The position numbers were made by a program, and so were the translations under genes. From a phage, in the NCBI GenBank assembly GCA_032986305.1, contig GCA_032986305.1_3672.1: a stretch of 64,000 nt of DNA; one strand, written 5' to 3'. This document shows positions 9,579 to 63,561 of this stretch, piece after piece; the first letter of the stretch is position 1, and each line of letters opens with the position of its first letter. The notes under the pieces were generated by a model, which did no database searches, had not been told where the DNA came from, and saw only the letters and a program-made list of their open reading frames with translations.

Positions 9579-9857
9579 ATGAGCTGTGAAAAATCTTTTT
9601 TCTTTATTATTTACGGTAAAGATAACTGCCCACATTGTGTAAGAGCAAAAGAATTTGCAGTCAGTAAAGGTCTGCCTTTTGTATATAAGACACTTGGCGA
9701 GGGTTACACAAAAGAAGAGCTTATTGAGAAGTGCAGTCCAATCGTACCCAGAACGTTGCCGCAGATCTTCTTAGAAAGCAATCTTGAAAGTGCCCATATA
9801 GGCGGTGCCGACGATTTCATCTCTTTTGTTAAGAATGGTTTTGGAGAGAAAAAGTGA
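9579..9857 (+). CDS. glutaredoxin/NrdH-like redoxin
   Basis: 92 aa with CPHC active-site motif in thioredoxin-fold context, adjacent to RNR genes. Confidence 0.65.
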   Translation: MSCEKSFFFIIYGKDNCPHCVRAKEFAVSKGLPFVYKTLGEGYTKEELIEKCSPIVPRTLPQIFLESNLESAHIGGADDFISFVKNGFGEKK

Positions 9858-10714
9858 AAGTTGTAAAACGGGACGGTAGAGAAGAGGTCTATAACGGAAT
9901 TAAGGTGATCAAGGCGGCAGAGTCCGCCTTACTTGAGTCTGGACATACTGAAGAAGAAGCTTACCGGATCGCCTGCGCGGTTAATGAAGTTGTTGCTAAC
10001 AATCTACCAACCGACCAGTGCACGATCTCTGTAAAAAATATCCATATCCTTGTTGAAGACGCTCTTATGGATATGGGTTTAAAATGTGCAGCCAGAGAAT
10101 ACATCCAGTATAGGCAGACAAGAGATAATAACAGAGAGGCAGGTGGAAAACTGCTTGCAGATATTAGTGGCTTCTTGGATCGCACTTGTGATGAATTTAC
10201 AAAAGAAAACGCAAATAAGCCTACCAATCATGTACACACTCATCGTGACCTGCTTGCAGGCATCCTTAGCAAACACCTTGCATCAACACAGATCCTGCCA
10301 GACCGTGTCTCAGAAGAGCACAATAAAGGCTTCATCCATGTGCATGATCTTGACTACTTGATCAGTCCGTTAACAAACTGTTGTTTGGTAAATTATCCAG
10401 ATATGTTGGAAAACGGATTCAACATTGGTAACGCCCATGTCAGTAAGCCGAAGTCAATAGGGGTTGCAACAACAATCCTTAGCCAAATTTCTAGTGCAGT
10501 AGCTAGTGCTCAGTATGGGGGTCAGACTATGAGCCATATTGATCATTATCTGGCACAGTATGCTGAGGCGACCTATGAGAAGAATCTTAAATTTTGCCAG
10601 GAACACTGGTTGCCAGATGCTGAGACTGTTGCAATGCAAATGACAGATAAAGACGTATTTGACAGCATGCAGACTTTGCTCTATCAAATCAATACGTTAA
10701 CCTCTGTCAACGGT
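9854..10714 (+). CDS. nrdD: anaerobic ribonucleotide reductase NrdD, exon 1
   Basis: ATP-cone start MKVVKRDGREE..., conserved NCCLVNY; frame stops at TAA that begins intron-like sequence. Confidence 0.8.
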
Positions 10715-10962
10715 TAACAAACTGGCCGTTTTAAAACTCTGCTAACCTCAGTATGAGGGGTCAGCTGATCGCTGGCTAACGGGGAACGCTAAGGCGAAAG
10801 CTATGCCAATCCCGTGACTAGCTTCACAAGGAGTGAGGCGGTTGTAACGACTAACCTTTTGGTGTAGGGATTATGGAAGATTCCGAAACGCAGAGGTCTG
10901 ATTAAGAATCACACGGTGTGATTTCAGGCAAGAGATAGTCTGGCCTTGTGGAAACATAAGGG
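10715..10962 (+). mobile_element. group I intron 1 in nrdD (ORF-less; boundaries approximate)
   Basis: Contains CUAACGGGGAAC...CAAUCCCGUG core resembling P3-P7 of T4 td/nrdB/sunY-type introns; flanking frames are NrdD-like. Confidence 0.55.
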
Positions 10963-11271
10963 TGGGGACCGCAAACCCCTTTTATCACATTAAGTTTAGG
11001 TCTGGACACCTCAGTATTTGGTAGAATGATTACCAAAAACTACTTGAAAGTCCACAAAATGGGTCTTGGTGAAGAATGTATCACACCTGTGTTCCCTAAA
11101 GTGCTGTTCTTCCTAGAAGAGGGTGTCAACATGAACCCTGGAGATCCTAACTATGATTTGAAACGTTTAGCTCTGGAATGCTCTGCAGAGCGGATTTATC
11201 CTGACTTTGTTTCTGTTCCACTAAATCGTAAAGTGACAGGCTCGACAGATGGCAAAGTAACGAGCATGGGT
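10963..11271 (+). CDS. nrdD: NrdD exon 2 (inferred)
   Basis: In-frame segment (…GQTPFITL…ITPVFPKVLFFLEEG…YDLKRLALECSAERIYPD…) completing an approx 710-aa NrdD when joined to exons 1 and 3. Confidence 0.55.
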
Positions 11272-12033
11272 AAACTATAACTGCTCATGTAAAATCTATC
11301 TAAACGGGGAAACTCCAGAACGGACAATCCCGTGCTAAACGTAACAGAACTCCTGACCAAGAGGAGTCCTGAAATGAGAAAACAAATTCGTGATTTTGAA
11401 GGTTATGAAATTGACGAGATGGGCAATGTTTATTGCACCCGCTACGAAAATGAAAGAATTATTCATTCGTGGGAAGAGATAAACACAGGTTACCGTCTTG
11501 TTAGGATACGCAAGAACAAAAAGACTGTTTGCCTAAGGGTTCACAGACTTGTTGCTGAAGCGTTCTTACCAAATCCAGACAATTTACCCTATGTTAAGCA
11601 CAAAGGGGACAACAGGAAAGATAACAGTGTATACAACCTTGAGTGGGGAGCTTGCCCAGACAATACGCAAGAAGGATACAACAACAACTGTTATGCTTTT
11701 TACACAAGATGCCACGGTGTGAAAGCCACCAACAAATTAACTGGTGAGGTTTTCCACTTTAAAAGTCTGAGATGTTGTGCTGATGTTTTAGGAGTGGATA
11801 GAAAAAGAATATCTGCTATCCTGAAACGTGGTGCGCCTAATAACTATGATTACGAGTTCTGTTACGAAATGCCTAACGACTAACCGTGATGAATGTAGCG
11901 GTGTAGGGTGTAAGCCGATGACACTCGAAATGGTAGACACACTAAGTGTGAAGATATAGTCTGATCTGCATGGGAACATGCAGCAGCACGTAAAGGTGCG
12001 GGGGTGGACTTGCGAACCACCCTGAACATAATG
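11272..12033 (+). mobile_element. group I intron 2 in nrdD carrying HNH endonuclease ORF
   Basis: 5' part AAUCUAUCUAAACGGGG...CAAUCCCGUGCUAAA and 3' part GAUAUAGUCUGA...GCAUGG...CAUGCAG...AUAAUG strongly resemble T4 td-type group IA2 intron core. Confidence 0.65.
11374..11883 (+). CDS. intron-encoded HNH homing endonuclease
   Basis: HNH_3-type motifs GYRLVRIRK...VHRLVAEAF...HK.G...DN...NLEW; SD AAGAGGAG before ATG. Confidence 0.8.
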   Translation: MRKQIRDFEGYEIDEMGNVYCTRYENERIIHSWEEINTGYRLVRIRKNKKTVCLRVHRLVAEAFLPNPDNLPYVKHKGDNRKDNSVYNLEWGACPDNTQEGYNNNCYAFYTRCHGVKATNKLTGEVFHFKSLRCCADVLGVDRKRISAILKRGAPNNYDYEFCYEMPND

Positions 12034-12996
12034 TGTAGAAGTTTCTTATCGAAATATAGCGACCCTGTAACAGGCGAGGAGAAATACCTTGGCAGATTTA
12101 ACTTAGGCGTTGTTAGCCTTAACCTGCCAATGATTGCGGCAAAAGCCAAGACGGAAGGTGTTGATTTCTTTGCAGTTCTTGACGAATACTTGGATCTTGC
12201 ATACGAGGCTCACCTTGTAAGGGTTAATCGTCTAAAAGGAACAAAGGCAGGGCAGAACCCCATCATGTGGTGTGAAGGCGCTCTTGCTCGCCTGGATCCT
12301 GAAGAGAGTGTTGATAAACTCTTCTATGACGGGTACGCTTCCATCAGTATTGGGTATATTGGTGTGTATGAAACCTGTCAGATTTTGGGTAGAGAGGGTG
12401 ACAAGGCTTTAGCTCTTGGAATCCTTCAGCACATGAGAGATGCTTGTGAGCGATACAAGAAGGAAAGTAGACTAGCGTTTAGCTTGTACGGCACTCCTTC
12501 TGAGAGTCTATGCTATAAAGCTGCAACCTGTCTGGATCGTGAATATCCGGAAGTGTTGAAGCACGAGCATGAATATCTCACCAACAGTTTCCATCAGCCA
12601 GTATGGATAAATAGCTCTCCTTTTGATAAGTGGGAGTATGAGGAAGGTTTTGCTATGATCTCCTCTGGTGGCAACATCGGATACGTAGAAACACCTAACC
12701 TGAAAAACAACCTGGATGCTTTAGAGGCTCTTGTTGACTTCGGGTATAAACATATTATGTACTTCGGTATAAACCAGCCTGTTGACCAATGCTTCAAGTG
12801 CGGTTTCCAGGGAGAATTTAAAGCCTCTCCAAGAGGTTTTATATGCCCTTGTTGTGGAAACCATGAGGAGGGAACGATCAGTGTAATTAGACGTGTGTCT
12901 GGATACCTTTCCAGTCCTAACTCCCGTCCTTACAATAAAGGTAAGCAAGCGGAAGTTATAGAACGGGTTAAGCACTATGGAAGTTGTAGTTGCTGA
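12034..12996 (+). CDS. nrdD: NrdD exon 3 (glycyl radical domain)
   Basis: C-terminal zinc site CFKCG...CPCCG and glycyl-radical motif RRVSGYL. Confidence 0.8.
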   Translation, partial: CRSFLSKYSDPVTGEEKYLGRFNLGVVSLNLPMIAAKAKTEGVDFFAVLDEYLDLAYEAHLVRVNRLKGTKAGQNPIMWCEGALARLDPEESVDKLFYDGYASISIGYIGVYETCQILGREGDKALALGILQHMRDACERYKKESRLAFSLYGTPSESLCYKAATCLDREYPEVLKHEHEYLTNSFHQPVWINSSPFDKWEYEEGFAMISSGGNIGYVETPNLKNNLDALEALVDFGYKHIMYFGINQPVDQCFKCGFQGEFKASPRGFICPCCGNHEEGTISVIRRVSGYLSSPNSRPYNKGKQAEVIERVKHYGSCSC

Positions 12997-13062
12997 TACT
13001 TGACAGAAGCCACAAGGATGTGGCATACTTGGCTAATCTATGAGAACCAAGAGGGATCAAAG

Positions 13063-14019
13063 ATGCCTAGAGGAAAACAACTTACAACTGAAGAATTTAC
13101 AAAAAGAGCTAGAGAAGTACATGGCGATAAATATGACTATTCAAAAACCGTATATAAAACTGCTAAAAGTAAGGTTGTAATTGTATGCCCTGTTCATGGT
13201 GAGTTTACGCAGATCGCTGGACATCATATCCTTGACGGTAGTGGGTGTCCTAAGTGTGGTAGAGTGCCAGTAGGCAATAAGCTTAGAAACGATTCTAGTG
13301 ATATTATCAAAAAATTTGTAAAAATCCACGGTGACACCTATGATTATTCTAAGGTTGAATATGTTAACTATAAAACTCCTGTAAAAATTGTATGCCCTGA
13401 GCACGGAGTGTTCTTGCAATCCCCATCTAACCATTTGAAAGGCCAAGGGTGCCCTGAGTGTAGTAAACTCATTAGCGCAGCAAAAAGGAATAAAGGCCCT
13501 GAATTCATAGAAAGAGCCAAAGAAATCCATGGCGATAAATATGACTACTCTTTTGTAGATTATATGACTTGCGAAGATAAGGTAGAGATAATCTGCAACA
13601 CTTGTGGAAATCACTTCACCCAGACACCTTCTTGCCACCTGTCTGGTCGTGGATGCCCTAAATGTGCCAAAAACGGTTTCTTATCTCACAACTATGGGAA
13701 GCTTTACCTCATGGTTGATAACTTAGAAGCGCCAACACTTATGAAGATTGGTGTGAGCGTCAATGTAGAAGCGAGGAAGGGAAGGATATTAAGAGCATCC
13801 AAGAAGGCTGGTGCAGGTATTTATGATCTCCACATAGTAAAAACATGGGGCGGATCGACTGAAAACATGCTGAGTGTAGAAAAATCTGTGCATGAAGCCT
13901 TCAATAAGTATAAAATAAACTTCTCTAAAGTATTTAGTGGAAGCACTGAATTCTTTCACTACAGACCTGAAGTGTTTAGCATAGTGGAAGCAGTATACAA
14001 AGAGATCTGTGGTAAATGA
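13063..14019 (+). CDS. free-standing homing-endonuclease-like protein (Zn-ribbon repeats plus T5orf172/GIY-YIG-like C-terminal domain)
   Basis: Three repeats of HGDKYDYS...CP.HG.F......H..G.GCP.C, C-terminal KLYLMVD...MKIGVS....R motif. Confidence 0.55.
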   Translation: MPRGKQLTTEEFTKRAREVHGDKYDYSKTVYKTAKSKVVIVCPVHGEFTQIAGHHILDGSGCPKCGRVPVGNKLRNDSSDIIKKFVKIHGDTYDYSKVEYVNYKTPVKIVCPEHGVFLQSPSNHLKGQGCPECSKLISAAKRNKGPEFIERAKEIHGDKYDYSFVDYMTCEDKVEIICNTCGNHFTQTPSCHLSGRGCPKCAKNGFLSHNYGKLYLMVDNLEAPTLMKIGVSVNVEARKGRILRASKKAGAGIYDLHIVKTWGGSTENMLSVEKSVHEAFNKYKINFSKVFSGSTEFFHYRPEVFSIVEAVYKEICGK

Positions 14020-14071
14020 TCGTAGAAAGATACACATGTCTTAAATATGCTATTAACTAAGGAGGTGCAGT

Positions 14072-15219: not shown

Positions 15220-16008
15220 ATGGGTCGAGCTAAAGAAACAAAACGCATGCGTGATGAAGCTAGAGAGGCTCGCAAATCTGATCGCCTGCGTAAGGCTGCT
15301 GAGAAATTTGCTGACGAACGAGAGCACACCGCTCCAGCTCTCCGACCAATGAATAAGAAGCAGCAAAAGTATCTTGATTATCTAGGGTCACGTAAGATTA
15401 TTATTGTAAACGGTGTGTTTGGATCCGGTAAGACATTCATGGCATCTGCATATGCAGGTGATCTTCTGCGTAAGAACGAGATTGATAAGATCATTGTTGC
15501 ACGTCCTTATGTACAGACCGGAAAATCAAGCGGATACAAACCGGGAACGTCAATGCAGAAGCTTTGGCCTTACCTTCGTAGTATGATGGACACTATTTGT
15601 CGTCGTGTTGGCAAAGGTGCTTTTGCCGCAATGCTAGGAGACGGTCAGAACAGCCGTATCGAGATTTGTGAAGTTGAAAGCATTCGTGGTCGTAGTTTCG
15701 ATGAGCGATGCTTTGTCCTGATTGACGAGGCACAGCAAACTAACCCTGAAGAAATGTTGTCAATTATCACAAGGATCTCTGATCAGGCAACCCTTGTAAT
15801 TATGGGCGATAATAGCCAACGTGACATCCCTGGTAAATCTGGCCTTGCATGGGTGACGGATTTCTTTACTCGTCATCCAGATCCTGAGGTTGGAATGATC
15901 AGCTTTGATAGTCCAGACGATGTCGTTCGTTCCGGGTTGGGTCGTCAGATTGCACTCAATCTTATTGAGGATCGTGCAAATCATATTTGGACCCCTGTTT
16001 CCGAGTAA
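15220..16008 (+). CDS. phoH: PhoH-like ATPase
   Basis: Walker A GVFGSGKTF and typical PhoH length/organisation; SD AAAGGAG. Confidence 0.85.
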   Translation: MGRAKETKRMRDEAREARKSDRLRKAAEKFADEREHTAPALRPMNKKQQKYLDYLGSRKIIIVNGVFGSGKTFMASAYAGDLLRKNEIDKIIVARPYVQTGKSSGYKPGTSMQKLWPYLRSMMDTICRRVGKGAFAAMLGDGQNSRIEICEVESIRGRSFDERCFVLIDEAQQTNPEEMLSIITRISDQATLVIMGDNSQRDIPGKSGLAWVTDFFTRHPDPEVGMISFDSPDDVVRSGLGRQIALNLIEDRANHIWTPVSE

Positions 16009-16052: not shown

Positions 16053-16081
16053 TTGACAAATAGGCAAGCTTTAGATATTAT
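16053..16081 (+). promoter_or_regulatory. sigma70-type promoter TTGACA-17-TATTAT
   Basis: Consensus -35, 17-bp spacer, near-consensus -10. Confidence 0.5.
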
Positions 16082-16109: not shown

Positions 16110-16421
16110 ATGGCTACAATACAAGAGAAACTGAATAAAATATACTGCCTGTTTGTCTATAACGGCGAGACAATTTTGGCAAATAAAGGATCCAAGAATG
16201 TGTGGATCAAGGACAGTGGTGGTAATATAATCAACTTAGCGTTGCTACGTGAGCGCCGACACAGATTCTTTATCGAGTCTCGGATTATTGAAAGCAGCAC
16301 CTGCTACAGAACAGGCGATAAAGTAATTGTTGACAATGATACGTGGTATGTGGTAGACTGGCAATCATTGAGTTGTGATGCTTCTGACAATCGTAAGTAT
16401 TCCATAGTGATTGCTAAATAA
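16110..16421 (+). CDS. hypothetical protein
   Basis: SD AAGGAGGAGG before ATG 16110. Confidence 0.45.
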   Translation: MATIQEKLNKIYCLFVYNGETILANKGSKNVWIKDSGGNIINLALLRERRHRFFIESRIIESSTCYRTGDKVIVDNDTWYVVDWQSLSCDASDNRKYSIVIAK

Positions 16422-16481
16422 AGGTAAATGTGAATCAGGTTTAAATAAATAGCTTTCAACTTCCAATATTAAGGATTTCTC

Positions 16482-17531
16482 ATGAATTTAACACCTCGCA
16501 GCACCATGGTACACGGCATGAAAGAAAAACAGAACGGTTTCGAACCTATGAGTAATAAAATGTTTGGTATGCCGGGCGGTATCATGGAAACATACAGCTA
16601 CCCAACACCTGTTGTTGACCACGTTCTTTATATCGACGATTTGGAAGACCTACAGGATCATATGTCTCGTCTGCAGACGATCCGTATGGCTCAGCCGGAA
16701 GAAAGCATTCGGGTAATCATCAATAGCCCTGGGGGTTGCGTGCACATTGCAATGGCTTATCTGCAGGCATTCCGCGAGTCTCAGGCAAGCGTTGTTGCAC
16801 ATGCTGAAGGGATGTGCTGCTCTGCTGGAACAATCCTATGGCTGGGTTGCAAAGAACGCACCGTGGCTCCGGACACAGAGTTTATGTTCCACTACTATCA
16901 AGGCGGCACTTATGGTAACGGTGTGAACATGAATACTCAGGTCAGCTACTGGAAAAAACGTTTCGAACGCCTGATCGAAAAATACTACGGTGGGGTGCTT
17001 ACAGAAGATGAGATCGCATCCATCACAGCTGGTGGCGAAGTGTGGTTGGACGGAGAAGAGCTGGCAGCACGCACTGGAGCTATTATTCTGGATGAAGGCA
17101 ACATACAACGCATCCAGAACGGACAAAAACCGAAAAAGCTTCTGGCAAAAGGTGATGAAGAAGGCGTGTTAGGTGAAGCAGGTCTTCCGGAGATTCACCA
17201 GTGCACATCTTTAGATGAGTTAGTTCATGCTGTTGAATCTGCAAAAGCGGGTGGTTCGAAAGGTGATGTTCACACTGTGTTCCTGAATCTGCAGATGGAG
17301 AGTGGCGAGACCGTCAGAATTGCCCTGGGTGAGATTACTTCAGAAGATCTGCAGAGATTCTCTGTCGTTGAACTTCAGGATATTCTGTCTCAATTGAAGA
17401 CTACTCTGAACGGCGGTGAAGAGGTTAAGGTGAAAGATAAGACTCGCAAGCGTCTGGTGGACAATATTATTAAAACAGCAAAAGAGCTCAATGAAAAAAT
17501 CCTGGGTGCAGGAATTGTCGAAGAAGCTTAA
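16482..17531 (+). CDS. ClpP-family serine protease-like protein with C-terminal extension
   Basis: Motifs IINSPGGCV and GMCCSAGT resembling ClpP INSPGG and active-site serine region. Confidence 0.55.
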   Translation: MNLTPRSTMVHGMKEKQNGFEPMSNKMFGMPGGIMETYSYPTPVVDHVLYIDDLEDLQDHMSRLQTIRMAQPEESIRVIINSPGGCVHIAMAYLQAFRESQASVVAHAEGMCCSAGTILWLGCKERTVAPDTEFMFHYYQGGTYGNGVNMNTQVSYWKKRFERLIEKYYGGVLTEDEIASITAGGEVWLDGEELAARTGAIILDEGNIQRIQNGQKPKKLLAKGDEEGVLGEAGLPEIHQCTSLDELVHAVESAKAGGSKGDVHTVFLNLQMESGETVRIALGEITSEDLQRFSVVELQDILSQLKTTLNGGEEVKVKDKTRKRLVDNIIKTAKELNEKILGAGIVEEA

Positions 17532-17582: not shown

Positions 17583-18116
17583 ATGACTTGTGCTAGAAAA
17601 CCTGATGAACAACGTAACGCCTACGATGAGTATGTGACACCGGAGTGGTGTGCAGAAGGGCTGTATGACCTTATTCCGTTCCCAGAAGACTGGACCTACT
17701 TAGAGCCTTGCAGGAATAGTGCCTCAGGTGTGTTCTACTCCCGTATGCCGTTAGGATCTGCATGGGGAGAAATCCAAGAAGGTGTTGACTATCTGAATAC
17801 AGAATACAACCATGTTGACTGTATTATCACCAACCCACCATACAGCCTGGCTCGTGAGTTTGTAGACAAGGCGTTGAAAGATGCTGACGTAGTTATTATG
17901 CTTTTGCGTCTTAATTTTCTGGAAAGCAAAACCAGATTCGAATGGTGGCTTGATAATGCACCTACCACTGTGATCACAATATCTAAGCGCCCGTCATTCC
18001 AATCCAATGGTAGAACGGATGGGCAGGCATATGCATATTTTGTATGGGACAAGAAAAACCGTCTAGACTTGCCGCCATTTATGTGGTTGGCACCACCAGA
18101 GGCAGACTTGAAATGA
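17583..18116 (+). CDS. DNA N6-adenine methyltransferase (small, NPPY type)
   Basis: Catalytic motif CIITNPPYS. Confidence 0.55.
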   Translation: MTCARKPDEQRNAYDEYVTPEWCAEGLYDLIPFPEDWTYLEPCRNSASGVFYSRMPLGSAWGEIQEGVDYLNTEYNHVDCIITNPPYSLAREFVDKALKDADVVIMLLRLNFLESKTRFEWWLDNAPTTVITISKRPSFQSNGRTDGQAYAYFVWDKKNRLDLPPFMWLAPPEADLK

Positions 18117-20546: not shown

Positions 20547-21002
20547 ATGTTTGTTAAATATGTAAAAACGTGCCTCAACAATCTTGGTAGAGAGCATTGG
20601 TACACCTTGCTTGAAAAAGGAGAAATTTTAACAAAATCTGGAAAGATAACTTTGATACCCTTGGACGATAAAGATCCGTCACTACTTATCATAGATGATT
20701 ACGTTACAGGTGTGTCGTACGAGGTCTCTGTGGAGAGGTTAATACGTAGATCTGGAGGTCCTTATGACCGAAGAGAGTATGTTTTCGATTCTGTTACAGA
20801 GAAGGAAGATCCGTCTCTAATGTTTAGGATGGTAATCAGGGATATGAAATCATCTATAAATAGGATCGTAAAGGACATTAAGGAGCCTTTTAGGGTAAAA
20901 GTTAAGAAGTTTTTTGATTCTAAGATTAACATACTTGCCGTTGTGCTAGGCGTAATTCAACTTCTGTTAATTTTGCACTATCTTGAACTGTTGTTTAAGT
21001 AG
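20547..21002 (+). CDS. hypothetical protein with C-terminal transmembrane segment
   Basis: SD GAGGGG before ATG; hydrophobic C-terminus. Confidence 0.4.
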   Translation: MFVKYVKTCLNNLGREHWYTLLEKGEILTKSGKITLIPLDDKDPSLLIIDDYVTGVSYEVSVERLIRRSGGPYDRREYVFDSVTEKEDPSLMFRMVIRDMKSSINRIVKDIKEPFRVKVKKFFDSKINILAVVLGVIQLLLILHYLELLFK

Positions 21003-21062
21003 CGTGCAATAAGGCACAAAGGATGTGCCATAATTAAATAGGTTAAGAAAGAGGTAGAGAGA

Positions 21063-29565: not shown

Positions 29566-30754
29566 CCTGAAGAGGCAAACGTGCATAATTCCTGTGCATT
29601 GGAACGTATGAAACCCTGTTCACACTCTCATTTCCAGAGGAGATTTCATGAAGATAGAAATATTTGGTGGAGCTGACAACACTCGTGGCCTGATTTACCT
29701 TGAATTCGATGAATCATACCTGCCAGAGGTGTTAAATATAAACTCTGTTGCTGAGGCTTTGGGAGTAAACCCTAAAGAACTCCACTCTTGTGCTGAGATC
29801 GATGGTTGGGAAGAGACCATGAACATTGATTTCAGTGAAGTAGAGGATGAACCGCTGGACTGACACACAATTAGCTGCCCGGCTAAAGTGCTGGAAGCAC
29901 CTATAACACATCTTTCAACTAAATTTCCCACCACCACAATCACTTACCTCCCACACATGACTGTTTGCTTGTTTAGTGAGCAGTCATGCCTTGACATTCT
30001 TGCCTATCCTGATAAAATTAAGTTCTTCTCTTTTCTTTTACCGAGTAATTCGGGTTTTCTGTTCTCTTCGGTTTGAAGAGGTATGGAGATACACCTGAGT
30101 GAACAGGGTGAACAACCGAACCATTGGCTATGGCATTAGCATGGCGAAGCGGACGGGTGACGAAAGAGGGGCCGGAGGACACCAGTCACTGCCATATGAT
30201 ATACGGGTGATAACCTGAAGAGTCTGAATAAGTGTTTAAGTACCAGTCAGAGGAAAAGGTGAATGGTAGCCGAAGGGGGAGGGGGGTTTCTTGTATCTTT
30301 AATTTGTATATTATGTATACACTTGTAAACCAATCTCATCTGAATCTGTTTACTACACAAAGCTGATAGGGACAAATATTACCTATTAAACTTGAATTAT
30401 TTATAGAAAATACCACAACACAACTTAAGTCTTTGATTTTACACACAAATCCTGCAGATATTCACCCTCCATATTTAACATACTTGTAACATATTCCATA
30501 CTCTACCTACCTGATCAATTTACCCACCAACATCCTCCATATTTTCCCTGTCTGTACCACCCCTGCCCCGCCGGGAGTCCCGTCATATCTGGCTTTCCAG
30601 CAAATATCACACCCACAAATATCATTGCCTGAAGAGGATTTCATCTCATAATACATGCCTTGCCTGAAGAGCGCTTCATACACCACGTAAATTTTTTAAT
30701 TGACCCCCTCCCCGCCGCCGGAGAGGTTGGCTTTTCCCACACAGACCTGAAGAG
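29566..30754. repeat. five dispersed copies of 9-mer CCTGAAGAG
   Basis: Exact copies at 29566, 30214, 30628, 30663, 30746 within non-coding DNA. Confidence 0.6.
29648..29863 (+). CDS. small acidic protein
   Basis: SD GAGGAGA; last plus-strand gene before noncoding region. Confidence 0.4.
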   Translation: MKIEIFGGADNTRGLIYLEFDESYLPEVLNINSVAEALGVNPKELHSCAEIDGWEETMNIDFSEVEDEPLD

Positions 30755-31279
30755 TCAGCCAGAAATATCTGAATGGACCCAATTCTGCCCTGTTATGAGC
30801 CGTAGCTACTGGAGTGCTGCCAGGCGGACGAAATGGGAATACTTCTCATTCTTATAACAATTCTCAAATATCAAGGCAGTGAGTCAAATTAATAGGCGAG
30901 GCCGTTCACACAGTGGCACAACATTTGCAACCTATCTTGTGGGGGTGAATGAGAATACCTATCATTGTGAGAATAGTTATCATTACGGGCAATTTAACAT
31001 AATACCCATTATGCGCACCACTGGCGATACATACAGGGATTGATAACATGAGTTACTGTTTACGCATATAACAATTATATTTCTTACTATTTGTGTGGGA
31101 TATAGTTAGCAGCCAATAGATTAGATATTGACCTGTAGACTTCCAACCGTCTAGACGTCTAAACGCCCACACAGCAAGGGTTATACATACACTTCTGAAT
31201 GTAAACAGGGCCGCAAAAATGCTACCATACCAGTTTGTAAATTTTTCATGCAGCACTTGACAAAGAGGAGAAAAACTTG

Positions 31280-31440
31280 TCTGACACTTTAGACACAATA
31301 GTGACATACTATGACACCTTTGACACTTTTGCATACCTGATTGTTTGCATGTCTAATAGTTTACATGGATAACTGTTCACATACTTATCATTTACATGAT
31401 TGACTGTTTACACAAATATGATAAGCCATGACATTCGTTT
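31280..31440. repeat. iteron-like direct repeat arrays (TGACAC(T)TT x3; GTTTRCAY x7 at about 16-bp period)
   Basis: Read directly: tttgcat, gtttgcat, gtttacat, gttcacat, atttacat, gtttacac, gtttgcat in series. Confidence 0.55.
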
Positions 31441-31500
31441 GCATGAAAACAATTAACAAGATAACAATTGACAAGCTAACAGCCAACAAGCTGACAATTA
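31441..31500. repeat. four tandem 15-bp repeats (consensus NTAACAATTRACAAG)
   Basis: aaaacaattaacaag / ataacaattgacaag / ctaacagccaacaag / ctgacaattaacagg. Confidence 0.55.
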
Positions 31501-31517
31501 ACAGGTTAATAATATAT

Positions 31518-31687
31518 GACATAATATAAAAGCAGGGCAACTATTAGCAGATCTATAGTTGCCTTGCTTGTTATGTCATGATTAACTAAATACAAGGCAA
31601 CTATGATCTGATTAATAGTTTGCAGACAAACTATCACGGGGGTGATTGTTACTGCTTTTATATTATGTCGCGACTCCGTCGCGACAT
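31518..31687. repeat. nested inverted repeats (18-bp IR GACATAATATAAAAGCAG, inner palindromes, GTCGCGAC x2)
   Basis: 18-bp perfect inverted repeat at 31518-31535 and 31654-31671; GGCAACTAT-n-ATAGTTGCC; ATAGTTTG-caga-CAAACTAT. Confidence 0.55.
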
Positions 31688-32307
31688 GTCATTCGTTTGC
31701 ATAGTTGCCTTATTGTTACGGATAAAATAATTGTATTGTTAATTATTTCTTATCTTTCTCTTAGTCATCTAATGATTCCAGTCAGTATAGTAATGTACAG
31801 TAAACATTAGACGACTAAATATTTCTCTGATTATAGTAACCTATCGTGACAATTTCGGACTGTTTACGAAAAATGTTGACACCTGGGCAGGTTTATGTTA
31901 TGCAGTTTGTACGAATAATTATTTTATACAGGTATTGACTATTCCGTTATTCTGTGGTTGGAATAAATACTTTGCAGGCTATAGAATGATGTTCGTACGT
32001 GAATTCTGAGATCTGTCGGCTATAGTTACACCCGATTTTTCACGTAGGACACGCTTTTTGGTTTGTGTAAGTGTATGACTTATAAGGGTTTTTAATTGTT
32101 GACAGTATGCTGAAAATGTGCATCAGGTTAAATTTTGTGCAATAGCTGCATTACGTGCGTTTTTGGAAGGAAAAACGTGTAAAAATGACCCTGCTACCAC
32201 AAGATGAAAGATTATGCAATAGTTATTTTATATGTATATTTGTACAGTGTGCGGGATTAATGGCTCGTCAATTATTCCACTTGCCAGGTAGGGCCGTTTA
32301 TGGTAGG

Positions 32308-32344
32308 AAAAGAGCAAACAAAAAGAAAGGGGCCTAAGCCCCTT
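32308..32344 (-). terminator. rho-independent terminator (minus strand; potentially bidirectional)
   Basis: AAGGGGC-ctaa-GCCCCTT with U-run on minus strand, immediately downstream of minus gene stop at 32356. Confidence 0.55.
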
Positions 32345-32355
32345 GATAATGTTTA

Positions 32356-55435: not shown

Positions 55436-56096
55436 CTTTAAACTCCTCAATCTCTTTCATCACTCTATCTCTTACAGCTTTTGCTTCTTCTAAAGTATTG
55501 TAAGTGCCATAGCTCTTTCTCTTTTTGCCGCTTTGCACTCTAACTCTCCACCTTCCAGAGCTCGGCACATAGAACACCCCTGTTACACCGCTAGTGTTTC
55601 TAACATCCAAATCTTGCGGGACGAATTTTCCCTTCTCCCATAACTTTCTGCATGCAATTGCATCTTCTTTTGTCTTAAAACACCCTAAGTATATGTCTCC
55701 AACAGATGCAATCCATCTTTTTATACCTCTAGGGTAGCGTACACCTCGACACCCTGAGGTATTGTTAATGCTCAGTTTGTCACTGTAGATCATGTCTCGT
55801 GCATTATCGCCCTGTGTACCTAGGACTAAGTTCTCTACCCTATCATCGCCTGCTATGTCGTTCTTGTGCCGCACAACAAGTCCTTCTGGTATCTCCCCGT
55901 AATGCATCTCCCAAACTATTCTATGCCTACGAACACTCCCAACACCTGACACATATATCACTCTATAGCCATTTTTATCTGTACCTGTGGCCTCCTCACC
56001 TGCGTAATGTATAACCCTGCCCCTTCCGGCTTTTGCAGTGTACGCCCAGAACAGTTTGCCGTCACTGTAGGTGAAATACTTGCTCCAGTCAACCAT
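55425..56096 (-). CDS. HNH homing endonuclease with two AP2 DNA-binding domains (free-standing)
   Basis: HNH_3 motif HRIVWEMHYGEIP...RHKN...DDRVENL; AP2-like SGCRGVRY... and SGVTGVFY... repeats. Confidence 0.75.
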   Translation of the reverse strand: MVDWSKYFTYSDGKLFWAYTAKAGRGRVIHYAGEEATGTDKNGYRVIYVSGVGSVRRHRIVWEMHYGEIPEGLVVRHKNDIAGDDRVENLVLGTQGDNARDMIYSDKLSINNTSGCRGVRYPRGIKRWIASVGDIYLGCFKTKEDAIACRKLWEKGKFVPQDLDVRNTSGVTGVFYVPSSGRWRVRVQSGKKRKSYGTYNTLEEAKAVRDRVMKEIEEFKDGE

Positions 56097-56850
56097 TGGC
56101 CCTTCTCCTTACTACAGGCTCGTTTGCTAAGAATACAGCTTTTGCCCAACCACGTGGTGTGAGGCTTCGAATCATCTTTGTTCTTGCACTCTTTCCACCC
56201 AGCTTGGCGTGTTGCATGGAATACCCGCTAACCGCGTCAACTATTTGCGGGACAGGTTTTGTGGCCGGGATTATAAATCCATTACCTATCCAGCCGCAAG
56301 TTATTTTTGGATAGGCATCGCGTGGAGCTATAAATTCAGGAAACCAAGGGTTTACATCATCCTCCGGTAAATACCCGCCATAGTCAGAAGGATGAAAACG
56401 GTAATCAGGTTTGCGCCACAGTGTGGACATAACACCCACAGGATTTTCTACATGCCACGGGCAATCGTAAATCTCTCCCAGCTCTTCAGCAACCCGAGCA
56501 TCCTTTACAGCATTAATTTGGATCATAGGGTCCTTATCCAGCTTTTTCTTAAAATGTGCAGCACCTGATACCGCTAAATGCGTGCACGGAGGAAATGCAA
56601 GAATAAAGTCTGGAGCTGGGTACATGCAAAAAGTTTCCTGAGGGAACCATGGGTCAATCCAATAATCCACATAGTGAATGTTGGGATGATCGGTTATCAC
56701 CTCTGCATAACTGCCGTGGTCAGCACCTTCTGCGTTAAAGCACAGGCACAGATATCCAGCTTTTGCCCAGTCAATGACTGCACCGCCAGATCCGTCAAAT
56801 AGACTCCACACAACACCTTTGTGGTAGTGTTCTTTATAGATAAATTTCAA
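56089..56850 (-). CDS. putative DNA methyltransferase (cytosine-5-like motifs); start probably TTG 56850
   Basis: Motif I-like SLFDGSGG, FPPC, ENPVG in correct order; track start at 56880 lies inside terminator hairpin. Confidence 0.4.
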   Translation of the reverse strand: MKFIYKEHYHKGVVWSLFDGSGGAVIDWAKAGYLCLCFNAEGADHGSYAEVITDHPNIHYVDYWIDPWFPQETFCMYPAPDFILAFPPCTHLAVSGAAHFKKKLDKDPMIQINAVKDARVAEELGEIYDCPWHVENPVGVMSTLWRKPDYRFHPSDYGGYLPEDDVNPWFPEFIAPRDAYPKITCGWIGNGFIIPATKPVPQIVDAVSGYSMQHAKLGGKSARTKMIRSLTPRGWAKAVFLANEPVVRRRANG

Positions 56851-61081: not shown

Positions 61082-63064
61082 TTATTTGGTGTTATTCTTT
61101 GTGTCGATCAGTTCACGGTATTCAATCATAGCAGGAGTGTCCCAATATTTCAAGCCCACATGCTTCAAAAGTGGATATTTCTTTTCCAATCTTGCAATAT
61201 AGGCCTTCCCGCACTTGACTCGGTTGGCGATTAAGATTTTGGCACGATGATTTAGCTCACTGTGCTTCCACGCGGTATTACCTTCCCACTTGTGGAAATG
61301 TGGCCGATAATTTCCAAAATCTTGCATGGGGATAATTTTCCCTAATTGTCTATACAGGCTGTCATATGAAGTTTCATTTGCTGCGCGAGTCAGTAAGAAT
61401 TTCCAGGCGTCCTCTTTCAACAAATGTTCCACATTTTTCTCTGTAACATACTGGCAATCAGGATCAGTCCAAAGCAGACGGGATTCTGATACCAGATACA
61501 AGTCCTCCCCTTCAGGAATCTGGAGTGCCGCACGCACACGGTCATAATTTTGCTGGTAGATGTTACTCAGCTGTCCCAGCCAACAACTTCCACGTTGGAT
61601 ATCACCCTCATAAGGAATGCAGTGCTTAATCTTCTTGAACTCTGCCTTAGTAATACGCTCACGACGGAAGTAACCATCCTTCTCAAGTTTTTTAACCCAA
61701 TAACCTGGCTCATAACGAGTTTTGGTTTCACCTTTCTTCGCAGGTCGGCGTGGAAGCTCTGATAACAATTTGACTGTATCTGCAAAGAACGGATGGTGTG
61801 CCACCTCTTTAAACTCTTTCACCAGATCCATGTTCCGGCAATAGAAAACGTTGCGTCCGGTGATCTCGCTTAAGTAGTTACACTTATTTCGGTTATATTT
61901 GCCGTCTCCGTCGTTAAATACTAAGTAGACCCCCCGTAAGAACTCCGACTTTCCGTAGCAGGCGTAACCTATGCGGCCTTTATTTAAGCCTCCAGCGAAG
62001 ATCTCACAATCTCCCAAACTTCCTAGTCCTGTCTCTTCCCATCGATCCCACATAAAATTCTTACCGAAGATGTGCCCAAACACTCCACTGTTCTTCATCA
62101 TCTCACGTGCTTCTGAGGATGTTTTTGCTGTCTCCAATTCCGCAACAACTTCTGCCCCACGAAGACGGATACCCTCTTTGACAAAAGCCTCTAGGCGATC
62201 CTGGAATCCACCGTCGTCATGGCCCTCTATGGTCCATTCACGCCCAGGGTTAATATTGCAATCCCCAATAGGAATTTCCACGCAGATCGCAGGGTAATCG
62301 GTCAATGTCTCCAGGAACTTAGAGCGGTAAGGTTGGTGACCCATCACAACACGGCTCTCATCAGAACTGGTATAACCTTTCAGGATGGTCATTTTCCAGC
62401 CATCCTTCTCGTAATGATACTGTGCCTCAACCTTGTCACCTTCTAACATCTTACTGGTCATGGGATCGGTGACGGTGAACGGAAACTTCGCATAGCGTAG
62501 GCATGATGCAATAGCAGTGCGATATTTCAGAACATGCTCTTTCTCAACATGGAACTGAACTTTTACCCCGTTGTGCTCTTCAGTCTTCCGCTCGCGGATC
62601 TTGGTAACGTTTGGGATACCCTGATCCAAGAACAACAGATATGTGCTTTCAACACCGTTGTGCACACTGATCACATCGAAAGTGTCCACCATGCTGAACG
62701 GGGCCTTTGAACCTACACCTTTATTACCTACCAGAGCGTTGCTGTTGCGCTTGGTTGACTCCCCGAGGTTCATGAAAGTGTTGCGGACCATCTCTTCTGA
62801 CATGCCTAATCCAACGTCCTGCACAAAGAAGTATGGTTCAAGGTCTGTAGGGGAGTGAATAATGATCGGTACATCACCCCGTCCAGACTCAACATGGGAG
62901 TCCACAGCATTGAAGATTGGTTCACGGCAGCTTGCCAGCACCTTATCTTCGTAAATCCCTTTAATGATCAGCCCAAAAGTCTCTTTGTTCAGAGAAATTG
63001 AGCCCCGGGTAACCTCCATATTCCCGGTTAGTACTGCTTTAGTTTCATTACTGTTTACGATCAT
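61082..63064 (-). CDS. GHKL-superfamily ATPase domain protein
   Basis: Bergerat-fold motifs in order: E-PIF-NAVD (N box), DVGLG (G1), GNKGVG (G2). Confidence 0.5.
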   Translation of the reverse strand: MIVNSNETKAVLTGNMEVTRGSISLNKETFGLIIKGIYEDKVLASCREPIFNAVDSHVESGRGDVPIIIHSPTDLEPYFFVQDVGLGMSEEMVRNTFMNLGESTKRNSNALVGNKGVGSKAPFSMVDTFDVISVHNGVESTYLLFLDQGIPNVTKIRERKTEEHNGVKVQFHVEKEHVLKYRTAIASCLRYAKFPFTVTDPMTSKMLEGDKVEAQYHYEKDGWKMTILKGYTSSDESRVVMGHQPYRSKFLETLTDYPAICVEIPIGDCNINPGREWTIEGHDDGGFQDRLEAFVKEGIRLRGAEVVAELETAKTSSEAREMMKNSGVFGHIFGKNFMWDRWEETGLGSLGDCEIFAGGLNKGRIGYACYGKSEFLRGVYLVFNDGDGKYNRNKCNYLSEITGRNVFYCRNMDLVKEFKEVAHHPFFADTVKLLSELPRRPAKKGETKTRYEPGYWVKKLEKDGYFRRERITKAEFKKIKHCIPYEGDIQRGSCWLGQLSNIYQQNYDRVRAALQIPEGEDLYLVSESRLLWTDPDCQYVTEKNVEHLLKEDAWKFLLTRAANETSYDSLYRQLGKIIPMQDFGNYRPHFHKWEGNTAWKHSELNHRAKILIANRVKCGKAYIARLEKKYPLLKHVGLKYWDTPAMIEYRELIDTKNNTK

Positions 63065-63561
63065 TTATTGCGCTCCTTGTAGTAGATATGACTCCCGAAT
63101 TGAGCTGTCCTCTGCATCTTTTTTGCCCATTTCGGTCGTACTTTGGTTGTATGGTAGTGTGTTGCTCCACCTGTTATGTCCATAGCCATGTATGCAACAT
63201 GGTTGTTATTATAGACCTTTAGAAGCATCTTTGCAAGACTTTTAGCGTGATCCCATGAATCTTTTTCTGTCACCTTAAAAGTTTTGCCGTGGTTTGTCCA
63301 CGAAAACTGGTTAGGTTGGTAGACAATCTTTCTTATAGTGTCTGGGTATTTGGGGTGAGCTTTCCTGTTTAGTGTGGCAAACCCGGATGCCAGCATACCC
63401 ATCGTGCCATCCCCTCTAGCCTCCCTGTAGATATTGCATGCCAGAATGTTTTCCTTAGTATCTGAGGGCTTGCAAGTATGATATACTTTTTGTTTTGGTG
63501 CTGCAACAACAGGCAGCGATAAAAATGCGCTCAAAATAATAGCAAAGATCTTAATTTTCAC
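63061..63561 (-). CDS. secreted cell-wall hydrolase (SleB/Hydrolase_2-like)
   Basis: N-terminal signal peptide; motif NIYREARGDG...QFSWT; GTG start after GGAG. Confidence 0.55.
   Translation of the reverse strand: MKIKIFAIILSAFLSLPVVAAPKQKVYHTCKPSDTKENILACNIYREARGDGTMGMLASGFATLNRKAHPKYPDTIRKIVYQPNQFSWTNHGKTFKVTEKDSWDHAKSLAKMLLKVYNNNHVAYMAMDITGGATHYHTTKVRPKWAKKMQRTAQFGSHIYYKERNK

Follow-up and report, generated by a model that had tools for sequence, protein, structure and literature searches.

A ClpP-like serine protease in the nucleotide-metabolism block of an rV5-like phage is distinct from the head-maturation protease

The subject of this report is a gene for a ClpP-like serine protease at 16482..17531 (+) of a 64,000-nucleotide (nt) stretch of phage DNA, contig GCA_032986305.1_3672.1 of NCBI GenBank assembly GCA_032986305.1, referred to here at its full length as the window. 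The gene lies within, and is co-oriented with, a block of ribonucleotide reductase (RNR), PhoH and methyltransferase genes, and its product is not the prohead or head-maturation protease of the phage. The open reading frame (ORF) is intact, comprising 349 codons and a stop, and stop codons occur throughout the strand opposite 16482-17531. A ribosome-binding site, TAAGGA, can be read from the sequence at 16470..16475 (+), with a 6-nt spacer to the ATG at 16482. The gene is the orthologue of rV5 gp117/ORF122 and of bas54_0171 in phage Bas54. It differs from the rV5 gene by 21 synonymous changes and 1 non-synonymous change (dN/dS 0.013, within an overall range of 0.013-0.015), which shows that the gene is real and selected; with dN/dS at about 0.01, purifying selection is strong. 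Two genes upstream is a gene for a PhoH-like P-loop ATPase (15220..16008, +), and directly upstream is an ORF of 103 amino acids (aa) at 16110..16421 (+), which corresponds to rV5 ORF121 and has no Pfam match. Directly downstream is a putative N6-adenine DNA methyltransferase gene (17583..18116, +), an arrangement also seen in phage CR8 and in Barbavirus. Two sigma-70-type promoter matches, both predicted only, precede the protease gene. The first, TTGACA-17-TATTAT (11/12) at 16053..16081 (+), is the equivalent of the rV5-annotated promoter P121 and sits 5' of both the small ORF at 16110-16421 and the protease gene. The second, TTGACA-18-TAGACT with an extended TG, lies inside the small ORF (16330..16359, +).

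The window belongs to an rV5-like Vequintavirus. More than 100 rV5-like Escherichia phages of this genus share 96-99% identity with a 4-kb stretch that includes the gene. The nearest database records include MG065646, MG065647 and 17 others (98.8% identity) deposited under names such as “Campylobacter phage D1” and “D#” with Campylobacter jejuni as host; the host label looks doubtful because these records are near-identical to rV5-like phages of E. coli. In phage JES2013, a protein with 100% identity to that of the window is annotated as “putative ClpP ATP-dependent protease subunit”, and bas54_0171, the “ClpP-like protease” of the BASEL phage Bas54 (MaxBurger), matches it at 347 of 348 positions. 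Hence, with entries in JES2013, rV5, Bas54 and the PHROG database, it is already annotated and catalogued and does not represent a novel type of system. Its full length is covered by PHROG 5410 (“ATP-dependent protease”; E = 4.9e-155, with aa 24-345 aligned to positions 4-322 of the 323-position profile), and the next-ranked match is PHROG 1827 (E = 2.6e-40); both outscore every head-protease PHROG. The protein of CR8, a Certrevirus within the Vequintavirinae, likewise falls in PHROG 5410 (E = 1.9e-141). Seven ClpP-like proteins from the early regions of other phages all belong to PHROG 1827, with PHROG 5410 as best or near-best second match. The window protein thus represents PHROG 5410, the branch found in Vequintavirinae, within a family that is widespread in virulent phages, and the short form of that family, PHROG 1827, includes the T5.042 homologue.

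What kind of protease is encoded? An earlier note on this DNA, made from the letters alone, had described a 349-aa ORF at 16482-17531 with a ClpP-type INSPGG motif and active-site Ser, and had asked for a hidden Markov model classification and a structure prediction. The motifs are indeed present in the sequence, and both analyses place the core of the protein with ClpP. The Pfam model PF00574 (CLP_protease) scores 47.7 bits over aa 59-168, against a gathering cut-off of 20.2. In an AlphaFold2 model for which 25 family sequences served as input, aa 45-215 form a ClpP-like core, with a predicted local distance difference test (pLDDT) score mostly of 86-95, followed by an extension of about 135 aa, so that the note's figure of about 150 aa was roughly right. 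The top 50 Foldseek matches of this core in the PDB are all ClpP (E about 1e-10 to 1e-9), with TM-scores of 0.56-0.76 to cellular ClpP structures (target-normalised; about 0.67) at 18-23% identity. The note had also allowed for a diverged S49/ClpP family member; the ClpP half of that proposal stands and the S49 half falls. Pfam Peptidase_S49 does not match, TIGR00706 (SppA_dom) reaches 14.4 bits where 155 are required, and the position of the general base is taken by a conserved His, whereas the S49 dyad is Ser-Lys. An S49 identity of the SppA or lambda gpC type was ruled out on these grounds.

Membership of the ClpP fold does not make the protein a cellular ClpP. Equivalog and subfamily models for the cellular enzyme score far below their cut-offs (TIGR00493, 33.2 vs 308.6; PRK00277, 38.2 vs 249; PRK12553, 39.2 vs 228). 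The protein scores higher with profiles of phage head proteases than with ClpP profiles, which fits an origin in an ATPase-independent lineage of phage ClpP-like enzymes. For example, PHROG 1684, a group of ClpP-related head-maturation proteases, matches at E = 8.7e-22. NCBIfam NF045542 (Clp_rel_HeadMat) gives 60.4 bits, which is below its cut-off of 120.

The core, encoded at 16614..17126 (+), was delimited with AlphaFold and Pfam and includes a handle helix at aa 150-169. The INSPGG motif (aa 80-85; 16719..16736, +) contains Gly85, which aligns with the oxyanion-hole Gly of ClpP. The predicted catalytic Ser114 (codon 16821..16823, +) lies in the sequence GMCCSAGT, is invariant in the family and aligns with Ser97 of E. 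coli ClpP; the predicted catalytic His137 (codon 16890..16892, +) is also invariant and aligns with ClpP His122. Glu186 (codon 17037..17039, +) falls in the column of ClpP Asp171, which holds Asp or Glu in the seven aligned PHROG 1827 members and in the rV5 clade, and Gln in a subclade of 4MG and Erwinia phages. The Asp column, placed by alignment with three ClpP landmark sequences, was cross-checked against an alignment to PDB 9ndj. Family proteins that are only 20-30% identical all keep Ser114, His137, the oxyanion Gly85 and the Gly-rich strand that binds the substrate, so the protein, judged by its residues, is probably an active protease. It could instead be a catalytically dead or regulatory relative, for instance one that acts as a decoy and poisons the ClpP rings of the host, or one that scaffolds some other complex. 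The third triad residue does vary between Asp, Glu and Gln, and the surface that would bind an ATPase has been remodelled, but invariance of the remaining catalytic apparatus at such low identity is what would be expected of an active enzyme, making a dead protein the least probable of the alternatives considered here.

The likeness to cellular ClpP (MEROPS S14; PF00574; E. coli ClpP, PDB 1tyf and 6wr2) thus extends to the fold, the INSPGG oxyanion loop, the Ser-His pair, the handle helix and the Gly-rich strand. Unlike cellular ClpP, the window protein has Glu for Asp, lacks the N-terminal axial loops, which in ClpP gate the pore and touch the ATPase, and carries an additional C-terminal module. 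Its N-terminal 44 aa (16482..16613, +) are predicted to be disordered (pLDDT < 50 for aa 1-43) and contain a family-conserved N25/F28-G29/Y40-P41 motif; aa 1-43 have no alignable homology to the axial-loop segment of ClpP. The pocket through which Clp ATPases and acyldepsipeptide (ADEP) antibiotics engage ClpP is also replaced. In E. coli ClpP, the hydrophobic apical pocket for the IGF/LGF loops of ClpX and ClpA is formed by Y60, Y62, F82, I90, M92, F112, L114 and L189; in the alignment these correspond to R77, I79, E99, H107, E109, T127, A129 and L203, respectively, with R77, E99, H107 and E109 invariant in the family. In the column of Arg170, the ring-ring sensor of the ClpP double heptamer (tetradecamer), the window protein has Gly185. 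Since the N-terminal loops, the ATPase-docking pocket and the ring sensor of ClpP are all lacking, the label “ATP-dependent” is unsupported.

These features bear directly on the possibility that the gene encodes a genuine ClpP subunit that hijacks ClpX or ClpA of the host, either by itself or within rings shared with host ClpP, and so redirects ATP-dependent proteolysis during infection. Such a role is implicit in the name used by databases, “ATP-dependent Clp protease proteolytic subunit”. In its favour, the fold is that of ClpP, the best structural matches are cellular ClpP, the Pfam CLP_protease threshold is passed, and the protein retains the Ser, the His and the handle helix. ClpS adaptors, which would work through host ClpAP, are encoded by some other phages (PMC7824862). 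Nevertheless, seven of the eight pocket residues contributed by one subunit are changed, six of them to polar, charged or small residues and four to invariant charged or polar ones, the sensor Arg has become Gly and the axial-loop segment is missing. Together with scores far below every ClpP equivalog and subfamily cut-off and the better scores of head-protease profiles, this makes hijacking of a host Clp ATPase unlikely.

The extension beyond the core has two parts. A variable linker (aa 216-261; 17127..17264, +) is partly disordered and includes an insertion specific to the rV5 clade, with a helix at aa 244-257. It is followed by a C-terminal module (aa 262-349; 17265..17528, +) with a predicted beta-hairpin (aa 267-281) and two long helices (aa 295-309 and 322-342). 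Within this module of about 85 aa, F293, E297 and R322 are invariant, and the module is shared with the CR8 protein (hhalign E = 4.7e-5). Compared with members of PHROG 1827, the Vequintavirinae proteins have two additional parts, the linker (about 45 aa) and the module (about 85 aa). The ClpP-like protein of phage ICP1 has an extension of its own, to which the module has no similarity; nor does the module resemble the rV5 scaffold gp062. An exhaustive scan of 1.84 billion representative proteins recovered only family members or their fragments and one spurious leucine-rich-repeat match, and the module has no recognisable fold relative. The module is private to the Vequintavirinae, with recognition of a partner or substrate, or oligomerisation, as plausible roles.

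Is the protein the head-maturation protease of the phage? The note had judged this doubtful from the absence of capsid and portal genes nearby, and that judgement is upheld by five independent lines of evidence: position, a separate head protease, genetics in Bas54, virion content, and the separate head proteases of phages that encode homologues. First, there is no capsid or portal gene within the 64-kb window. The window aligns with rV5 from 75.8 kb onward, and its last large ORFs (61082-63064, 660 aa, and 63061-63561, 166 aa) match in size rIIA (gp001) and gp002 at the start of the rV5 record, from which we infer that the window continues beyond the end of that record. In rV5, the head module (53.4-60.9 kb) and the protease gene (90.6 kb) are about 30 kb apart and are transcribed in opposite directions. 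The structural neighbours that would have spoken for a head role are therefore not adjacent in the wider genome either, and no profile assigns the protein clearly to a prohead family.

Second, the rV5 head module has a protease of its own. Its order is terminase, portal (Portal_Mu), gp063, gp062, decoration protein and a lambda-E-type capsid protein, where gp062 is a 325-aa protein annotated as head scaffold in Bas54. With 64.6 bits, gp063 clears the Pfam cut-off of 24 for Peptidase_S78_2 (XkdF-type phage serine protease), and it shares 100% identity with the “prohead protease” bas54_0006. This second serine protease of the same phage is of an unrelated fold family and, unlike the ClpP-like protein, is located in the head module and is essential. 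The gene (55883-56455 of the rV5 record) is labelled “DNA methyltransferase” by RefSeq and PHROG 1530, an annotation error that has spread.

Third, the two proteases differ in their tolerance of transposon insertions. A HIDEN-SEQ preprint gives TA-site saturation and essentiality calls for genes of Bas54 (10.1101/2025.11.20.689424, Extended Data Table 8). The prohead protease gene bas54_0006 was hit at 1 of 24 TA sites and called Essential, as were the portal, scaffold, decoration and capsid genes, each with 0 or 1 sites hit (10.1101/2025.11.20.689424). The ClpP-like gene bas54_0171 was hit at 28 of 44 sites, a saturation of 0.64, and called “Intermediate”; its neighbours bas54_0170, bas54_0172 and bas54_0173 are Non-essential, at 0.93-0.97 (10.1101/2025.11.20.689424). 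Similar values to that of bas54_0171 are found for bas54_0181 and bas54_0182 (0.67 and 0.62; 10.1101/2025.11.20.689424), which from their position and size would be the aerobic RNR genes. Because disruption is tolerated but the gene is under-saturated, with a value near those of bas54_0181 and bas54_0182, the ClpP-like gene behaves as an accessory fitness factor. Fourth, mass spectrometry of rV5 virions detected 19 proteins, none of them ORF122, and the peptides of the capsid protein start at residue 5, which means that no N-terminal domain is cleaved from it. The same data set bears on a gene 3 kb downstream of the protease, the orthologue of rV5 ORF133 (rv5_gp128) at about 20550-21005 of the window, which encodes 151 aa with a predicted transmembrane segment; its label “virion structural protein” is weakly supported, by 2 peptides and 2 spectra at 15.9% coverage.

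Fifth, phages that carry PHROG 1827 homologues and were checked have a separate head protease. For example, the T5-like phage BF23 has a prohead protease as well as the early ClpP-like homologue ORF45, and the BF23 paper keeps the prohead protease apart from the T5.042-type protease (PMC10644984). The matches found by tblastn in T5-like phages were considered as the T5 prohead protease and rejected; annotation identifies them as T5.042 homologues, encoded in the early region beside a dNMP kinase gene. In database records, those of Klebsiella phages among them, this T5.042-type gene is labelled variously “ATP-dependent Clp protease” or “head maturation protease”, the latter in conflict with both its position beside the dNMP kinase gene and the separate prohead protease of T5 and BF23. 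Barbavirus has a separate peptidase between its portal and capsid genes. T4-type phages also have a separate head protease, gp21.

Outside its own family, the nearest sequence relatives of the protein are the ClpP-related head-maturation proteases (NF045542; PHROGs 1684, 94, 2976 and 133; gp4 of Rhodococcus phage Whack). These are likewise ATPase-independent phage enzymes of the ClpP fold, often with C-terminal extensions, but head maturation depends on them and they are encoded between portal and scaffold or capsid genes, whereas the window gene is about 30 kb from the head module, dispensable for plaque formation in Bas54 and absent from the rV5 virion data. Whack gp4, a weak match and a true ClpP-like head protease, served as a control; its gene order is terminase-portal-protease-scaffold-capsid. 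This kinship raises the possibility of a capsid-associated enzyme of another kind: a second head-maturation protease, or a packaged processor of minor virion or ejected proteins, with an extension that serves for scaffold-like targeting in the manner of lambda C/Nu3-type protease-scaffold fusions. The PHROG 1684 and Clp_rel_HeadMat scores and the long extension are compatible with this, as is the detection of the BF23 homologue, at low intensity, in purified virions (PMC10644984). DHFR is also present in BF23 virions, however, suggesting carry-over of abundant early proteins. In addition, the gene lies in an oppositely transcribed block far from a head module that already has an essential protease, it tolerates insertions in Bas54, its product went undetected in rV5 virions, the capsid protein shows no N-terminal processing, the Clp_rel_HeadMat cut-off is not reached and the module is unlike scaffold gp062. 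A capsid-associated role is thus quite improbable.

The setting of the gene in other phages is consistent. The survey covered ten lineages sampled by hand, including a second N4-like phage, VBP47, whose locus has only unannotated neighbours; among the annotated neighbourhoods, none is a head module. In rV5, CR8 and ICP1, RNR genes are followed by PhoH and then by the ClpP-like gene. In Otagovirus UNO-G1W1, the PhoH ORF overlaps the start of the ClpP-like gene by 8 nt, and in Barbavirus the order is PhoH, ClpP-like protease, Dam methylase. The ClpP-like gene of PAK_P4 is in a cluster with dCMP deaminase and DNA ligase genes, that of the N4-like phage AD45-P4 adjoins an RNR gene, the T5.042 homologue of the T5-like Serratia phage Slocum is immediately 3' of the dNMP kinase gene, and in the KVP40-like phage PVA8 the gene lies between DHFR and UvsX. 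The PHROG 1827 proteins (the T5.042 homologue, BF23 ORF45 and those of KVP40-like phages, ICP1, PAK_P4, Otagovirus, N4-like phages and Barbavirus) share with the window protein the core, the Ser, the His and the acidic residue, and their genes have a like neighbourhood of nucleotide-metabolism and replication genes, often with PhoH. In all, PHROG 1827 members adjoin dNMP kinase, DHFR, RNR or PhoH genes in eight lineages besides that of the window. The note's description of a ClpP-type protease in a nucleotide-metabolism block is correct, and rV5 gene order agrees with it. A methyltransferase gene directly follows the protease gene in three lineages (rV5, CR8 and Barbavirus). The small upstream ORF was considered as a conserved adaptor and rejected, as it is kept beside the protease gene only in the PAK_P4/Otagovirus pair.

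In five sampled lineages (rV5, CR8, ICP1, Otagovirus and Barbavirus), PhoH precedes the ClpP-like gene on the same strand and within 0-3 genes. This order could mean that the protease and the PhoH-like P-loop ATPase form a phage-specific ATP-dependent degradation module. The linkage is absent from the T5-like, KVP40-like, PAK_P4 and AD45-P4 loci, however, and several of the linked lineages may be anciently related, so that they would not be independent cases. PhoH genes are common in large virulent phages, which also counts against a specific pairing, and PhoH resembles SF1 helicases rather than AAA+ unfoldases. The PhoH gene of Bas54 is Non-essential, with a saturation of 0.94 against 0.64 for the protease. 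Partnership with PhoH is therefore very improbable. A broader proposal is that PHROGs 1827 and 5410 are prohead-type ClpP-fold proteases that have been recruited to a form of host takeover tied to nucleotide and DNA metabolism; in its strongest version, the PhoH-like ATPase would be the energy-dependent partner and the C-terminal module of the V5-like phages would pick the targets. The gene order in five lineages and the replacement of the ClpX-docking surface by an invariant charged surface are compatible with it, but it should be regarded as a long shot. If true, PhoH partnership would mean a previously unrecognised kind of ATP-dependent protease.

The note's suggestion that the protein could target host proteins has a precedent: in a comparative study of jumbo phages, phage ClpP genes, which are patchily distributed, were suggested to be deployed against the host (PMC7824862). 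No literature on the ICP1 ClpP-like gene was found, the supplement of the PAK_P3 transcriptomics study contains no ClpP-like gene, and Clp-type enzymes go unmentioned in a paper on the activation of CBASS by proteases of phages. A defence or counter-defence role was considered and rejected: no PADLOC family of anti-phage defence or counter-defence proteins matches at E <= 0.01, and the Bas54 gene has no conditional phenotype on two clinical isolates.

Other parts of the window also differ from rV5 or stand out. The gene for the anaerobic RNR, nrdD (9854-12996), is split relative to rV5 by insertions at 10714-10970 and 11272-12068, leaving exons with ATP-cone/NRDD and NRDD/Gly_radical domains. 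Both insertions coincide with Rfam group I intron matches that are below the gathering threshold of 50 bits (10705-10961, 29.2 bits; 11878-11983, 35.3 bits). The weak HNH and I-HmuI NUMOD-like matches of a 183-aa ORF in the second (11332-11883) would fit an intron homing endonuclease. Between nrdD and nrdG is about 1 kb that is absent from rV5 (insertion 13032-14054), with a gene at 13000-14019 whose 339-aa product combines repeated DUF723/CapR/treble-clef zinc-finger units with a C-terminal T5orf172/MUG113 (GIY-YIG-like) domain; it looks like a free-standing mobile gene of the homing-endonuclease type. Further on, an ORF-poor gap of about 2.3 kb (about 30100-32350) separates rightward from leftward gene blocks. 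It is the counterpart of a Bas54 intergenic region without transposon insertions in HIDEN-SEQ (10.1101/2025.11.20.689424). The gap has no Rfam match and looks like a replication origin: its repeats (31449-31748) include four iteron-like copies spaced 15 nt apart (31449-31513), nested inverted repeats and a perfect 18-nt inverted repeat (31518-31535 / 31652-31669).

What might the protease do? The gene likely encodes a non-structural, cytoplasmic serine endopeptidase of the ClpP fold that acts in the infected cell. The protein would be made together with the enzymes of DNA metabolism and would assemble into a ClpP-like ring. It would then cleave proteins of the host or of the phage, and would do so without engaging ClpX or ClpA, since the axial loops, the hydrophobic pocket and the sensor Arg are all replaced, in part by invariant charged residues. 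In the Vequintavirinae, the C-terminal module on its flexible linker may serve as a domain for recognition of substrates or partners, or for oligomerisation.

Several points weigh against this proposal. For the family as a whole, protease activity, oligomeric state, timing and substrates are inferred. The Gln at the third triad position in the 4MG/Erwinia-phage subclade suggests that the acidic residue may be dispensable, or that the Gln-bearing members may differ in activity. The mapping of the docking pocket rests on an alignment at about 20% identity. As to production with the DNA-metabolism genes, a search of the literature on expression timing in V5-like phages found no Vequintavirus transcriptome, and promoter matches across the region are at background density, being no more numerous than the shuffled expectation. 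For bas54_0171, two clinical E. coli isolates gave no differential effect (log2 fold change 0.23, q = 1), and the “Intermediate” call could reflect polar or domain-specific effects (10.1101/2025.11.20.689424). Finally, the low-intensity detection of the BF23 homologue in purified virions, with DHFR (PMC10644984), would be compatible with some association with particles.

What are the implications for the family? First, its members are usually labelled “ATP-dependent Clp protease” and sometimes “head maturation protease”, and both labels look wrong. Correcting them would be of practical value, as would renaming the XkdF-type prohead protease of rV5, which RefSeq calls “DNA methyltransferase”. 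To what was already catalogued, the present analysis adds explicit evidence against a head-protease role, the naming of the mislabelled XkdF-type enzyme, evidence that “ATP-dependent” is an unsupported label and the delimitation of the private C-terminal module. Second, the family is found in virulent phages of therapeutic or ecological importance, namely the rV5 and BASEL Vequintavirinae, T5-like phages, Vibrio cholerae phage ICP1, Pakpunavirus, KVP40-like phages and N4-like marine phages. The substrates of these ClpP-like enzymes represent a modest functional gap in our understanding of how phages take over their hosts.

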